64,000 nt of DNA from an uncultured Muribaculaceae bacterium (GTDB taxonomy: Bacteria; Bacillota_I; Bacilli_A; RF39; UBA660): NCBI GenBank assembly GCA_964384115.1, contig CAYLJU010000002.1:4912-68911 (forward strand), written 5' to 3'. The first letter of the stretch is position 1; each line of letters begins with the position of its first letter. Made by a program: the position numbers and the translations under genes. Below, piece by piece: positions 4,844 to 35,230 of the stretch. Under the pieces are notes generated by a model that was not told where the DNA came from, made no database searches, and worked only from the letters and a program-made list of their open reading frames with translations.

Positions 4844-5062
4844 CTAACTAATTCTAATATATATATCTTTATTTTTTCGTATAATAGTATCAACTATTTT
4901 TAGTGCTTCCTCAAATTGATGTAATTTAATCAATTCAAAAACTTTTTCTAATCTTTCAACTATTTTTAAAAGCATATTATTTTGATTTTTCAATTTAATT
5001 CTATTTTTACTAATTTTATAAATATTCATAATAAAATAATATAAATCATAATTTTGAAGCAT
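4844..5062 (-). CDS. Small hypothetical protein (72 aa)
   Basis: ORF-track only; no recognisable domain. Confidence 0.2.
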   Translation of the reverse strand: MLQNYDLYYFIMNIYKISKNRIKLKNQNNMLLKIVERLEKVFELIKLHQFEEALKIVDTIIRKNKDIYIRIS

Positions 5063-19497: not shown

Positions 19498-19573
19498 GCA
19501 CGTATGGTGAAGCGGTTAACACGGCGGATTGTGGTTCCGTTATGCGTGGGTTCGAACCCCACTATGTGCTCCA
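19498..19573 (+). tRNA. tRNA-His (anticodon GUG)
   Basis: A cloverleaf can be folded by eye: 7-bp acceptor, D-arm AGCGGTTA, anticodon stem GCGGA/TCCGT with loop TTGTGGT, T-arm GTGGG-TTCGAAC-CCCAC, encoded CCA. Position -1 is A and the discriminator is U (not the usual G-1/C73). Promoter TTGCAA-17-TAAAAT upstream. Confidence 0.8.
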
Positions 19574-30689: not shown

Positions 30690-30950
30690 TTTATAGTTCT
30701 ATGTTTTGTTATGCTGCTATTAATGAAGGTACTGGGATAACAGTTAATTATATTGCATAAGCAAGTATTCTTGTAGATAGTGTGATTGCAAATAATTCTA
30801 ATGTTGTAAAGGGTGTGAAATGTAAAATTATTATAAAAACTATTGATTTTTGAATAAAAATATATTAATATATGCTTATAAACGTTGATTGGAAGAGTAT
30901 AATTATTATCTATTATAGAAAGTTAATGGTTGATGGAAATTAATATAGAT
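30690..30950 (+). repeat. Copy A of a roughly 230-nt repeated element with two tandem mini-ORFs (30701..30760 and 30782..30853)
   Basis: About 70% identity with 49190..49420 including codon-phased indels; see findings. Confidence 0.5.
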
Positions 30951-31100
30951 GTAGTTAGAAAGACACCAGGAGTGCTTAGGCGAAATTAGTAGAATGAGCC
31001 GGTTAAAACCGTTATATTTAAGAGTGACTATTTTATAGTAATAAAGGTGGTACCGCGGATTAACAGTGATTCGTCCTTTTTTAGGACGACACTGTTTTTT
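30930..31100 (+). promoter_or_regulatory. T-box riboswitch leader (asnS)
   Basis: T-box consensus AAGGTGGTACCGCGG at 31044-31058, terminator hairpin + U-run, then an AGGAGG RBS. Confidence 0.7.
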
Positions 31101-31111
31101 TAGGAGGATAT

Positions 31112-32428
31112 ATGAAAATAGATGTAAAAGATTTAAAAAAATACGAAAATCAGGATATTGTTTTTGAAGGATTTGTTGATGCAATAAGAGATATTAAATG
31201 GGTTCAATTTGTAGTTTTAAGAGATAGTACTGGAAAAGTTCAAATGACAATTGAAAAATCGGATGAAAATAATAAAGAAATGGTAGAATTAATTAGTACA
31301 TTACCACTTGAAAGTACAATAAAAGTTAATTGTAAAGTTGTAATTAATCCTAATGTTAAATTAAATGGTATGGAACTAATACCTAGTAAAATAGAAGTTA
31401 CTAGTAGGAGTGAAAATGAATTACCATTTAATTATAAAGATTTAGAAAATGTTAATTTAGATACTAGATTAGATTATAGATTTATAGATTTAAGAAATGA
31501 AAAAAATATAAAAATATTTCAAATTCAAAGTAGTTTAGTAAGATATATGAGAGAATATTTATATGAACATAAATTTACAGAAATTCATACACCTAAATTA
31601 ATAGGTGCAGCTAGTGAATCTGGTTCAGAAGTTTTTGAAGTTAAATATTTTGATAGAAAAGCTTATTTAGCGCAATCACCACAATTTTATAAACAAATGG
31701 CAATAGCTAGTGGATTTGGTAGAGTATTTGAAGTCGCACCTTGTTTTAGGGCTGAAAATTCTAATACTAGTAGACATGCAACTGAATTTACAAGTTTTGA
31801 TGTGGAATTTAGTTATATTAATTCATTTGATGATGTTATGAATTTAGAGGCGGAAATGCTTGCATATGCTTTTGAAAAAATAAATATTGAATATGGTGAA
31901 GAAATTAAAAATATTTTTGGAAAGGAATTGAAAGTTCCAACATTACCATTTCCTAAAATGTCTTTAAAAGATGTATATAAAGAATTAGAAGAAAGATATG
32001 GATATACAGTTGATGAAAAAGAGAAAGTTGATTTAACAACAGAAGCTGAAAGACTTGTTTATAAGCTTGCTCAAGATAAGTTTGATCATGAATTTATGTT
32101 TATAACAGATTATCCTGCTGAAAAAAGAGCATTTTATCATATGAGAAATAAAGATGGAATTTTACAAGGATATGATTTGATTTGGAGAGGTGTTGAAATA
32201 ACTACTGGTGCCCAAAGAGAACATAGGTATGAAGAATTATGCAAAAATGCTCATGAAAAAGGTTTGGGAGAAGATGTTAAATTTTATTTAGAATTCTTTA
32301 AATATGGTTGTCCTCCACATGGTGGATTTGCTATTGGTATAGATAGATTAACTATGCTTTTATTGAATATAACTAATGTAAAAGAATCAATGTTCTTATT
32401 TAGAGGACCTAATAGATTAAATCCTTAA
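31112..32428 (+). CDS. asnS: Asparaginyl-tRNA synthetase (class IIb; archaeal-type AspRS not excluded)
   Basis: N-terminal OB fold; motif 2 'CFRAENSNTSRHATEF' (E. coli AsnRS has FRAENSNTSRHLAEF); motif 3 'GGFAIGIDRLTML'. Confidence 0.75.
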   Translation: MKIDVKDLKKYENQDIVFEGFVDAIRDIKWVQFVVLRDSTGKVQMTIEKSDENNKEMVELISTLPLESTIKVNCKVVINPNVKLNGMELIPSKIEVTSRSENELPFNYKDLENVNLDTRLDYRFIDLRNEKNIKIFQIQSSLVRYMREYLYEHKFTEIHTPKLIGAASESGSEVFEVKYFDRKAYLAQSPQFYKQMAIASGFGRVFEVAPCFRAENSNTSRHATEFTSFDVEFSYINSFDDVMNLEAEMLAYAFEKINIEYGEEIKNIFGKELKVPTLPFPKMSLKDVYKELEERYGYTVDEKEKVDLTTEAERLVYKLAQDKFDHEFMFITDYPAEKRAFYHMRNKDGILQGYDLIWRGVEITTGAQREHRYEELCKNAHEKGLGEDVKFYLEFFKYGCPPHGGFAIGIDRLTMLLLNITNVKESMFLFRGPNRLNP

Positions 32429-32552
32429 TATAGCAGAAATGCTATATTTTTTATGATTATTTTTGTAAATTAAATATAATTATTTATTTTTTGCATATAA
32501 TATTAATGCAAATTAAAATTTGCTATTTTATGTAAATGAAATTGACTTTCAT

Positions 32553-32587
32553 CATAAAATATAGTATATTATTATTGCATTTGAAGA
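32553..32587 (+). promoter_or_regulatory. Sigma-A-type promoter for the repeat RNA (TTGACT-17-TATATT)
   Basis: Read from the sequence; located just downstream of the asnS terminator (32431-32453). Confidence 0.45.
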
Positions 32588-32603
32588 AGTGCTTTAATAA
32601 GAA

Positions 32604-32710
32604 AATGTTTCTCGCTCCCGGATGGTGCGAGTAATAAATTATTCCGGGCGACAATGTTTCTCGCTCTCGGGTGGTGCGAGTAATAAATGATCCCGAGAGA
32701 AAATGTTTTG
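32604..32710 (+). ncRNA. Type III antitoxin-like RNA: 2.2 direct repeats of 49 nt, each an H-type pseudoknot
   Basis: R1 32604-32652, R2 32653-32701, partial R3 32702-32710. Stem A CTCGC/GCGAG is invariant. Stem B is CCCGGA/TCCGGG in R1 and TCTCGGG/CCCGAGA in R2 (compensatory changes). The order A-B-A'-B' gives a pseudoknot. Confidence 0.6.
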
Positions 32711-32743
32711 AAAACTTTATCTTAATGATAGAGTTTTCTTTTT
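32710..32743 (+). terminator. Rho-independent terminator between repeat RNA and toxN-like ORF
   Basis: GAAAACTTTATC-TTAAT-GATAGAGTTTTC followed by TTTTTT. Confidence 0.55.
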
Positions 32744-32771
32744 ACATATGTTATATGGGAGTTGATAATCT

Positions 32772-33263
32772 ATGAAAGTTCAAACAGGATATTTATATCA
32801 TATAAAAGATGAGTTCTTTGATGTAGTAAATGATGATAATTTAATGACTAATCATGAGCGCGGAAAAAAACGTCCGACATATTTTACGATTAAAGATGAA
32901 GATATATTATGGTTTATTCCTTTAAGTAGTAAGGTTGAAAAATATCAAAAAATTATAGATAAAAAAAATAAGAAATATTGTTTTTGAAACACTATTTTTG
33001 TTTGAAAGATATTGGAAGAAGAATCCGTTATATTATTTCAAAATGCTTTTCCTACGTTAGAAAAATATATCGATCATGTTCATACATCTAATGGAGCACC
33101 AGCAAAAGTTGGAACTTTACTTAAAAATGAAATATTGAATAATTTTAAAAATTTATTAAAACTTAAAAGTCGTGGCTATAATGTGTTTTTTACTGATATA
33201 GATAAAATTAAAAAACAAATGCTTAAAGAACTAGATAATTCAAATAAACAAAAAATCTCATAA
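32772..33263 (+). pseudogene. ToxN/AbiQ-like type III toxin gene interrupted by two in-frame TGA codons
   Basis: N-terminus 'MKVQTGYLYHIKDEFFD...KRPTYFTIKDEDILWFIPLSSK' resembles ToxN ('MKFYTISSKYIEYLKEFD...PKAFIGIVLEI..YLAPLTSPK'). ORFs 32772..32987 and 33012..33263 are in the same frame, separated by TGA (32985) and TGA (33003). Confidence 0.5.
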
Positions 33264-33273
33264 TTTTTAATTT

Positions 33274-33300
33274 TTAGCACTTTCTATTGACAAGTGCTAA
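33274..33300 (+). promoter_or_regulatory. CIRCE operator (HrcA binding site) upstream of htpG
   Basis: TTAGCACTT-N9-AAGTGCTAA, a near-perfect match to the CIRCE consensus TTAGCACTC-N9-GAGTGCTAA. Confidence 0.85.
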
Positions 33301-33349
33301 AGGCGGTGGTATAACTATATTTAGTACGAAAAAGTACAAGGAGGAATTT

Positions 33350-35230
33350 ATGAGAAAAAAAGAGTTTAAATCAGAGTCTAAAAGGTTACTAGATTTAATG
33401 ATAAATTCAATCTATACAAATAATGAAATATTTTTAAGAGAACTTATATCAAATGCTAGTGATGCTTTAGATAAATTATATTACAAGTCATTAGTTGATT
33501 CTAACATTAAAGTGAATAAAGATGACTTAAAAATAACTGTTGAAGTAGATGAAAAAAATAATACTTTATCTATTATTGATAATGGTATTGGTATGACATT
33601 AGAGGAACTTGAATCTAATTTAGGTACTATTGCTAAAAGTGGATCTTTAGTTTTTAAAGAAATGGCTGATAAAAATAAAGATATTGATATTATAGGTAAA
33701 TTTGGTGTTGGTTTTTATTCAGCATTTATGGTAAGTGATAAAGTAGAAGTATTAAGTAAGTCTATAGATAGTGATAAAGCTAATTTATGGATTAGTGAAG
33801 GTGCTGATGGTTATACAATTGGTGAAGCTAATAAAGAAACAAATGGTACAATAATTCGTTTGCACTTAAAGAAAGATACTGATGAAGAAGATTATTCACA
33901 ATATTTAAAAGAATATAAAATTAAAGAATTAGTTAAAAAATATTCTGATTATGTAAGATATCCTATTGTTATGGAATGTGAACATCAGAAGTTAAAAGAA
34001 AATAGTAAAGATTCTGAAAAGAAAGAATATGAAACAGTAAAAGAATTAGAAACATTAAATAGTATGATTCCAATATGGAAGAAAAATAAAAAAGATGTTA
34101 AAGAAGAAGAATATGATAATTATTATATAGATAAATATTATGATTATGAAAAACCTTTAAAGGTTATATCTACATCAGTAGAAGGAGCTTGTTCATATAA
34201 AGGACTTTTATTTATTCCTTCACATGCTCCATATGATTTTTATACAAAAGAATATGAAAAAGGATTGAGTTTATATTCTAATGGTATATTGATTATGGAT
34301 AAATGTAAAGAATTATTACCTGATTATTTTAGTTTTGTTAAAGGTGTTGTAGATAGTGAAGATATATCTTTAAATATTTCAAGAGAATTGTTGCAAAAAT
34401 CAAAAAATTTAAGTGTTATTGCTAAAAACATTGAAAATAAAATTAAAAAAGAATTAGAAAATATGATGGAAAATGATAGAGAAATTTATAAAAAATTCTT
34501 TAAAGCATTTGGAAATCAATTAAAATTTGGTATTTATAATGAATATGGTATGCATAAAGATGAATTGAAAGATTTAATTATGTTTAATTCATCTAAAACA
34601 AAAGATTTAATTTCATTAAAAGAATATGTTTCAAATATGGATAAAGATCAAAAAGTAATTTATTATGCTTGTGGTGAAAGTATAGATAAAATTGATTTAA
34701 TGCCACAACTTGATCAAATAAAAGATAAAAATTATGAAATATTATATTTAACTGATTATATTGATGAATTTACATTATCTGTTTTAGGAGAATATGATGG
34801 TCATAAATTTGTAAATGTCGCAAATGAAAATTTGGATTTAGAAATAACAGATGAAGTAAAAAAATATAATGAAGAAAATAAAGATTTACTTAACTTAATG
34901 AAAGATGAAATTAGTGTAAGTGAAGTAAGATTTACAAATAAACTTAAAAACCATTCAGTATGTTTAACTTCAAAAGGTAATGTTTCAATAGAAATGGAAA
35001 AAGTTATTAATGCTATGCCTACAGATGAAAGAATTAATGCTGAAAAAGTACTTGAAATCAATATGAACCATCCTATTGCTAAAAAACTTGAATCTTTATA
35101 TAAAGACAATAAAGAAGAATTAAAATCTTATGCTAAAGTTTTGTATGCTGAAGCTAGATTAATAGAAGGATTATCTATTGAAAATCCTACTGAAATAAGT
35201 AATATAATTAGTAATATTATTGCAAAATAA
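33350..35230 (+). CDS. htpG: Chaperone HtpG (Hsp90)
   Basis: 'LRELISNASDALDK', 'IGMT', 'GQFGVGFYSAFMV'-like Bergerat fold; start at the internal ATG after AAGGAGG; terminator at 35231-35256. Confidence 0.9.
   Translation: MRKKEFKSESKRLLDLMINSIYTNNEIFLRELISNASDALDKLYYKSLVDSNIKVNKDDLKITVEVDEKNNTLSIIDNGIGMTLEELESNLGTIAKSGSLVFKEMADKNKDIDIIGKFGVGFYSAFMVSDKVEVLSKSIDSDKANLWISEGADGYTIGEANKETNGTIIRLHLKKDTDEEDYSQYLKEYKIKELVKKYSDYVRYPIVMECEHQKLKENSKDSEKKEYETVKELETLNSMIPIWKKNKKDVKEEEYDNYYIDKYYDYEKPLKVISTSVEGACSYKGLLFIPSHAPYDFYTKEYEKGLSLYSNGILIMDKCKELLPDYFSFVKGVVDSEDISLNISRELLQKSKNLSVIAKNIENKIKKELENMMENDREIYKKFFKAFGNQLKFGIYNEYGMHKDELKDLIMFNSSKTKDLISLKEYVSNMDKDQKVIYYACGESIDKIDLMPQLDQIKDKNYEILYLTDYIDEFTLSVLGEYDGHKFVNVANENLDLEITDEVKKYNEENKDLLNLMKDEISVSEVRFTNKLKNHSVCLTSKGNVSIEMEKVINAMPTDERINAEKVLEINMNHPIAKKLESLYKDNKEELKSYAKVLYAEARLIEGLSIENPTEISNIISNIIAK

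Follow-up and report, generated by a model that had tools for sequence, protein, structure and literature searches.

What is the small module that lies between asnS (31112-32428) and htpG (33350-35230) in an uncultured gut bacterium, and can it still do what its parts suggest? The DNA in question (the window) is a stretch of 64,000 nucleotides (nt), positions 4,912 to 68,911 of contig CAYLJU010000002.1 (assembly GCA_964384115.1), assigned to the RF39/UBA660 lineage of the Bacilli. Its + strand carries, between the two genes, a promoter-like site, a hairpin, direct repeats, a terminator, a ribosome binding site (RBS) and a frame of 163 codons. An earlier reading of the letters alone (the sequence-only reading) took these for a type III toxin-antitoxin locus with a ToxN/AbiQ-like toxin, possibly of a new family, and ascribed to it a role in abortive infection or addiction. 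The locus is very probably a chromosomal type III cassette of the CptIN family whose toxin gene has recently been inactivated. The RNA half (cptI) is intact and the toxin gene (cptN) has stops at codons 72 and 78; it is therefore read as the remnant of a cassette in decay, in which the antitoxin array has been orphaned next to a toxin pseudogene. The type III layout had been recognized correctly in kind, as the anatomy of the cassette and the CptN toxin bear out.

The family is told by the toxin. The cptN frame (32772-33263, + strand) has 163 codons in a single frame, including the two TGA codons, and both stops were masked for the protein profile searches. It matches the NCBIfam equivalog model for CptIN toxins (NF047359) from end to end (profile positions 1-150 of 150; 148.9 bits, E=9.6e-44, cutoff 90), a model on which the intact orthologue P0001 scores 154.1 bits. 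A phmmer search aligns it with the solved CptN of Eubacterium rectale (4RMO_A; E=1e-15, residues 6-146). The Pfam ToxN family (PF13958) gives 20.1 bits for the window frame and 16.9 for the intact orthologue, below the gathering cutoff of 25; PADLOC has no family that the frame matches, and no TenpN-type profile is among the Pfam, NCBIfam and PADLOC matches at E up to 10. Rfam returns no family, ToxI included, over 32000-33800 at E <=1, and none at the locus when the whole window is scanned at gathering thresholds. Because the CptIN model and 4RMO_A are matched, ToxN stays under its cutoff and PADLOC is empty, the toxin is, by profile comparison, CptN and neither ToxN nor AbiQ. Among the ToxN, AbiQ, CptN and TenpN families, any of which the sequence-only reading would have accepted as a relative, it is the CptN profile that is matched, and the ToxN/AbiQ label is replaced accordingly. 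The peptide pattern offered for that label, RP..[FI]..........[FL].PL[ST]S.K, does not literally match RPTYFTIKDEDILWFIPLSSKVEK, being off by one residue in two places, although the resemblance is real.

The active site of E. rectale CptN includes a Ser-Ser-Arg triad, Asp81, Ser85 and Tyr104 (Rao et al., 2015; PMC4627078). In the alignment with 4RMO the triad motif IPLSS(R) reads IPLSSK in the window (Ser52-Ser53-Lys54), and Asp81, Ser85 and Tyr104 correspond to Glu82, Ser85 and His104. The window cassette thus resembles that of E. rectale in being chromosomal, in its order of promoter, about two repeats, terminator and toxin, and in its IPLSS(R/K) motif. It differs in the moderate identity of the protein, with Lys for Arg in the triad and His for Tyr104, in its host, an uncultured low-GC gut Bacilli lineage, and in that its toxin is a pseudogene.

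The antitoxin array comprises two cptI repeats of 49 nt, at 32604-32652 and 32653-32701, followed by a partial third, AATGTTTT (32702-32709), that repeats the first 8-9 nt of the unit and gives the 3' junction of repeat 2, a predicted processing site. Tandem Repeats Finder (TRF) reports a period of 49 in 2.2 copies with 85% matches (32600-32708), and a direct-repeat search finds two 49-nt copies of 86% identity plus an 11-nt start of a third. Over the 64-kb window, nhmmer recovers these two units and no others. Each unit can form two interleaved helices. The first (stem A, or S1) pairs CTCGC (32611-32615) with GCGAG (32627-32631) in copy 1, and 32660-32664 with 32676-32680 in copy 2. The second (stem B, or S2) pairs CCCGGA (32617-32622) with TCCGGG (32643-32648) in copy 1 and (T)CTCGGG (32665/6-32671) with CCCGAG(A) (32692-32698) in copy 2. 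In copy 1 the first loop (L1) is U 32616, a linker UGGU occupies 32623-32626, and the second loop (L2) is UAAUAAAUUAU (32632-32642); the UGGU linker of copy 2 is at 32672-32675. The helix order A5'-B5'-A3'-B3' is that of an H-type pseudoknot. Coordinates, repeat boundaries (2.2 copies of 49 nt) and helix sequences are as the sequence-only reading had given them, which the repeat searches and direct reading confirm.

Seven of the 49 positions differ between the two copies. Four of these make up two compensated S2 pairs (C-G to U-A and A-U to G-C), and a fifth difference adds one U-A pair. That compensatory change preserves stem B, as had been claimed, is therefore correct, but the proof of the structure comes from comparison across genomes and not from the single sequence. 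Folded singly, the units show nothing remarkable (z = -0.8 and -1.8), as is to be expected where nested folding cannot represent a pseudoknot. A weak Rfam hit over the array, the Mycoplasma small RNA MCS4 (22.6 bits against a gathering threshold of 56, E=2.2), pairs unrelated segments and was judged a chance match.

Relatives of the toxin are numerous. A protein search found 2687, the best being intact 163-residue proteins of 96% identity, and a scan with one genome per species found 364 loci with cptN relatives, of which the best 80 were examined. All 80 are in metagenome-assembled genomes (MAGs) from the guts of rabbit, human, roe deer and chicken, which carry the labels uncultured Bacilli, Tenericutes, Mycoplasma sp. 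or Erysipelotrichaceae. Together with the window and two close relatives, L001 and L002, they provide 83 upstream regions. Of the 83, 77 have an array of two complete 48-51-nt units plus a partial third on the 5' side of cptN, with a terminator hairpin after it; the start of the partial third is AATG(T/A)TT in nearly all related loci. The conservation of the repeat RNA in related genomes that the sequence-only reading anticipated is thereby found, and so is the covariation of its helices.

The pseudoknot was examined in an alignment (A2, made with MAFFT) of 77 distinct repeat units from the related loci. Standard pairs fill 90.8% of its pair cells, against a mean of 83.1% on shuffling (0/500 shuffles as high), and 8 of the 11 pairs show change on both sides, a number that 3 of 500 shuffles reach. 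When the 3' partners were slid by 1-3 columns, pairing fell to 19-53% with at most four both-sided pairs. S1 is paired in 97.9% of cells, with swaps of C-G/U-A, U-A/C-G and G-C/A-U. The inner five pairs of S2 carry 7, 16, 11, 2 and 29 double-sided changes; the outermost (A2 columns 14/48) is the sole pair without conservation. Where S2 differs between the units of a locus (45 loci), its arms pair at 4.89 of 5 positions within a unit and at 3.77 of 5 across units, which indicates that the helices are intramolecular to each unit. L1 is an invariant single U, and the L2 core AUAA.U is invariant in the 77 units. This covariation test is decisive for the predicted structure, and it is on cross-genome covariation that the assignment of the repeat unit as an H-type pseudoknot rests. 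Covariation and layout support a very short L1 and a long, A-rich L2; the three-dimensional fold is a prediction.

The same alignment has an invariant UGG followed by Y between the 5' arm of S2 and the 3' arm of S1 (A2 columns 20-25), with CUA, CUG or CUU following UGG in the 51-nt units. In 51-nt forms with the linker UGGCUA, S1 can gain a sixth pair. The UGG linker could be a toxin contact or take part in a tertiary interaction.

The CptI RNA of E. rectale, which we rebuilt from a primer in Rao et al. (2015) and then numbered, provides a structural reference. Its unit is a 45-nt H-type pseudoknot with a single-base L1. Its L2, A27-G35 (AUAUAAAUG), is long and A-rich and makes an extended A-minor twist on S1, and A29 and the kink nucleotide U30 in it are essential for antitoxicity. 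CptN cuts after A45 at a GA/AAG junction, and the complex is a 2:2 ring (Rao et al., 2015). Both RNAs have an S1 of 5 base pairs (bp), an L1 of 1 nt and an S2 of 5-6 bp, and L2 (AUAUAAAUG and UAAUAAAUUAU, respectively) is A-rich with an AUAAAU core in both. The 5' tails, AAGUUUA in E. rectale and AAUGUUU in the window, share GUUU, and the unit junctions, GA/AAG and GA(C/A)AAUG, are both A-rich. The window unit is longer, 49 nt (48-51 in its clade) against 45; the extra length is the UGG(Y) linker, where E. rectale has only AU, and two more bases in L2.

The toxin half has fared differently. Where intact orthologues read KKYGFCNTIFVRKIL, the window reads KKYCF*NTIFV*KIL. Its cptN differs from the intact genes of L001/L002 at 19 of 492 nt, mostly synonymously, and three changes are damaging. 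TGT to TGA at 32987 makes the first nonsense codon (32985-32987; Cys72 in orthologues), AGA to TGA at 33003 the second (33003-33005; Arg78 in the closest orthologues), and GGT to TGT at 32979 is a missense change beside the stops (Gly70Cys). Cys72 is nearly invariant in orthologues and aligns with Cys71 of E. rectale CptN. The stops part the active-site residues, with Ser52-Ser53-Lys54 on their 5' side and Glu82, Ser85 and His104 on their 3' side. What can still be encoded is an N-terminal fragment of 71 residues, which keeps Ser-Ser-Lys, lacks the equivalents of Asp81, Ser85 and Tyr104, half of the fold and the residues that define the scissile adenine, and would be inactive. A frameshift was ruled out: the two pieces of the open reading frame (ORF) are in one frame, separated by the two TGA codons. 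The locus in the window cannot kill, nor can its array be processed by its own toxin; the abortive-infection or addiction role proposed earlier cannot apply to a gene with two nonsense codons, a defect that the sequence-only reading understated.

The allele is not confined to one assembly. L083, a contig from an independent metagenome assembly (sample ERZ28436069), is 98.4% identical to the window over ~1.2 kb and has a truncated 71-residue ORF on record. It carries both stops and in addition a 16-bp deletion (L083:470-480; window ~33064-33079), which indicates that the pseudogene allele is real and decaying further. Single nonsense codons in cptN beside intact arrays occur in four other species (L004:1747-1749, L018:1669-1671, L029:1639-1641 and L080:1576-1578). 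They are TAA, TAA, TGA (at the invariant Trp47) and TAA, respectively, the TAA codons being at positions 26, 57 and 83. Since these stops are independent, toxin-first decay is recurrent. Several cptIN loci with truncated toxins beside full arrays were also present in an earlier survey (Blower et al., 2012; PMC3401426).

A side observation concerns the distribution of the substitutions. Four of the 19, including both nonsense changes, fall within 30 nt in the region 32975-33014 and give rise to a weak tandem similarity of 17 nt (TRF score 48). The cluster may reflect a single multi-base mutational event, although the clustering loses significance when multiple windows are taken into account.

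The sister strain L001, whose AsnS and HtpG are 98% identical to those of the window, shows how the site may change. Its asnS and htpG are separated by two cptIN cassettes in tandem. The downstream one is the intact orthologue of the window cassette. The upstream one (L001:1890-2660; an insertion between window positions 32428 and 32500) has its own promoter copy, terminator and two-copy array of 51 nt, and an intact CptN (NCBIfam 157 bits) that is 74% identical to the downstream one. The window has the downstream cassette only, so the asnS-htpG site holds one or two by strain. A near-exact second copy of the ~70-nt promoter region separates the cassettes of L001, and recombination between the promoter copies could add or remove cassettes. 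Between the arrays of the window and L001, 8 of 98 nt differ, and seven of the eight are within the S2 arms or next to them; flanks and toxin gene differ by 1-4%. Rao et al. (2015) described a rapid co-variation of the specificities of toxin and antitoxin, with which this pattern agrees.

These features bring up a different view of the locus, in which the orphan array has stayed under selection after loss of the toxin and serves as an anti-addiction or immunity RNA against a related CptN, whether from another locus of the genome or brought in by a mobile element. Beside a toxin gene with two stops, both units are intact with a perfect S2 of 6-7 bp, and the array has diverged from that of L001 more than flanks and toxin gene have, almost wholly at the S2 arms. 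Potential targets exist in the clade, in which one genome often has several cptIN cassettes (L012/L033, L010/L045 and L048/L072 are each from the same MAGs), as does L001 at this very site. However, the decay of the toxin looks recent, with 19 of 492 nt changed and mostly synonymously, and an intact array is therefore expected even in the absence of selection. Closely related CptI RNAs still fail to neutralise non-cognate CptN (Rao et al., 2015), the precursor could not be processed by the dead toxin, and the 64-kb window has no second cptN. We regard retention for immunity as unlikely. A broader form of this proposal is similarly unlikely. It holds that in this gut Bacilli lineage recombination between near-identical promoter regions makes the asnS-htpG interval a hot spot for the stacking, swapping and pruning of cptIN cassettes, and that the cptI array left after the death of the toxin is kept as an immunity RNA in its own right, directed against related CptN toxins.

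Recent inactivation, the reading favoured here, presupposes that the two TGA codons mean stop. If they were errors of sequencing or assembly, or were read through or recoded, the locus would be a working toxin-antitoxin system. TGA is the leakiest of the stop codons, and both are of this kind, no more than 21 nt apart and among the four substitutions in 30 nt. In addition, some related MAGs bear the label Mycoplasma or Tenericutes, and in these groups TGA can be read as Trp. It was these labels and the two TGAs that led us to consider TGA as a sense codon (code 4 or 25). Codon usage rules this out, since six long ORFs of the window hold 22 TGG and no in-frame TGA, as in the standard code, and one of them ends in TGA; so do the orthologues, which have Cys and Arg at the two positions, not Trp, Gly or Sec. 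As to error, the changes are substitutions and not homopolymer indels, and L083 has the same two stops along with a deletion that shifts the frame. The TAA nonsense codons in cptN of other species likewise speak against a working gene. A functional toxin gene in the window is thus very improbable.

Whether the cassette belongs to a new type III family, as the sequence-only reading had suggested from the 49-nt repeat, depends on how far it departs from known systems. In the 2012 survey cptIN loci were all chromosomal, with repeats of 40-48 nt in 1.9-3.4 copies (Blower et al., 2012, Table 2), and the window unit, in 2.2 copies, is one nt over. The lack of an Rfam match, the Pfam ToxN score below cutoff and the extra conserved UGG(Y) linker that the E. 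rectale RNA does not have would also be in keeping with novelty. Against this, the toxin scores 59 bits over the curated CptIN equivalog cutoff and aligns end to end with the solved CptN, and the RNA has the CptI layout with the same L2 core. The suggestion therefore falls with the assignment of the toxin to CptN, and there is hardly any likelihood left in it. The locus is a member of the known CptIN family, a clean example and not a new kind of system, and the 49-nt unit is a subfamily trait (48-51 nt) that extends the known range marginally.

Other type III systems are further removed. ToxIN of Pectobacterium atrosepticum and Bacillus thuringiensis and AbiQ/antiQ of Lactococcus share the logic and gene order, a pseudoknot antitoxin processed from tandem repeats, a Kid-like endoribonuclease toxin and a terminator that sets the ratio of RNA to toxin. 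They differ in having another toxin family, repeats of 36/34 nt in more copies, a triplex-type pseudoknot and a 3:3 triangular complex, as opposed to 2:2 in CptIN. TenpIN of Photorhabdus luminescens is similar in its type III layout with about two long repeats of 39-57 nt (Blower et al., 2012, Table 2), but the window toxin matches CptN and no TenpN-type profile. That the repeats act as DNA, as iterons or operators bound by protein or as a generic intergenic repeat, has almost nothing to commend it: direct repeats beside a promoter can be operators and the folding of single units is not exceptional, but the double-sided compensation in two interleaved helices over 77 units can be understood only through pairing in RNA, array and cptN are strictly coupled, with the promoter 5' and a terminator 3' of the array, and nothing similar is found elsewhere in the window.

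The cassette has further elements on either side of the array. A sigma-70 type site for the cptI-cptN transcript, TTGACT (-35), 17 nt and TATATT (-10), occupies 32542-32570 on the + strand. It matches the consensus at 10 of 12 positions, as the sequence-only reading had seen, and begins 11 nt before the point at which that reading started the module. Most of 73 distinct leaders of related loci have TTGAC(A/T)-17-TATATT at an equal distance 5' of repeat 1, which suggests that the site works as a promoter. It is followed by a leader hairpin (32571-32598, +) with the core GCAUUU 32577-32582 / AAGUGC 32587-32592 and a minimum free energy (MFE) of -7.7 kcal/mol (z = -2.9). The hairpin recurs in most related loci with arms that are altered but complementary (GCACTT/AAGTGT, CTACTT/AAGTAG, CCATT/AATGG). 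It is probably the 5' end of the cptI transcript, a stem-loop that would stabilise it; we found no description of it in Blower et al. (2012) or Rao et al. (2015).

An intrinsic terminator lies between the array and the toxin gene (32710-32743, +; hairpin 32710-32738), as the sequence-only reading had placed it. It has a 12-bp stem, a 5-nt loop and T5, and its hairpin folds with an MFE of -15.4 kcal/mol (z = -6.7), which none of 200 shuffles equals. It is kept in related loci, with arms changed yet complementary. An RBS, GGGAG (32757-32761, +), was read from the sequence 10 nt 5' of the ATG, and its core GGAG is common to L001, L002, L036 and L083. The end of the array is 63 nt from the cptN ATG; in related loci the distance from array to cptN is mostly ~110-180 nt, and up to ~290 nt in a minority.

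In the surroundings, a T-box leader (30876-31081; Rfam RF00230, 118.4 bits) precedes the class II aminoacyl-tRNA synthetase gene at 31112-32428, which is the asnS of the sequence-only reading. A single tRNA gene is at 19498-19570 (Rfam RF00005, 60.2 bits). The whole window has ~25% G+C, and its ORFs are densely packed, use the standard code and are mostly on the + strand.

From these parts and by analogy with the E. rectale system, a mode of action can be proposed for the intact relatives. Transcription from the single promoter would yield an RNA that starts with the small hairpin and runs through the two-and-a-bit repeats of 49 nt. Antitoxin RNA would be in excess because the terminator is proposed to end most transcripts, and read-through past it would yield CptN, an endoribonuclease. 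Cleavage of the precursor by CptN at the GA(C/A)AAUG junctions, which are A-rich, would release single units, each of which would fold into an H-type pseudoknot (5-bp S1, 1-nt L1, 5-6-bp S2) with its A-rich L2 in the minor groove of S1, and would remain on the toxin, blocking the active site. A drop in transcription or degradation of the RNA would free toxin to cleave cellular RNA, with post-segregational or stress killing, and possibly abortion of phage infection, as the outcome. Toxicity, cutting of the precursor and neutralisation are known only for the CptIN systems of E. rectale, Coprococcus catus and Ruminococcus torques (Blower et al., 2012; Rao et al., 2015), and transcription, processing, inhibition and ancestral toxicity are extended to the present clade from E. 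rectale.

Several points weigh against the account given here of an ancestrally working CptIN cassette with a recently inactivated toxin. The coverage of L083 is only 1.9x, and the window, too, may derive from a source that is a metagenome consensus. Only analogy fixes the exact point at which the RNA would be cut. In the triad, the third residue is Lys where E. rectale has Arg, and the counterpart of Tyr104 is His, so catalytic equivalence is assumed from the alignment. Finally, two cptIN loci gave no phage resistance in Escherichia coli (PMC3401426; PMC4627078).

The position between asnS and htpG is common to the window and to L001 and L002 (sister strain) only; the other 80 loci are elsewhere, which argues that the cassette is mobile. 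No cptN relative was found in phage collections. Plasmid collections gave six matches, all below 60% identity (five of 32-36% over 66-94% of the query and one of 50% over a short stretch).

An annotation should describe the locus as a cptI RNA array and a cptN pseudogene, not as a novel defence system. If the hot spot and the retention of an immunity RNA, doubtful as they are, proved true, orphan type III antitoxins would be a functional class and not debris. The nonsense inactivation of cptN in 5 of ~80 loci, with arrays intact, illustrates the expected order of decay in toxin-antitoxin modules. Because no Rfam family matched the cptI array, alignment A2 could seed an RNA family. More generally, the related loci show that uncultured low-GC gut Bacilli harbour a large, hitherto uncharacterised CptIN clade, which defines a CptI subfamily of 48-51 nt with an invariant UGG linker and whose natural covariation confirms the pseudoknot seen in the crystal structure of CptI.

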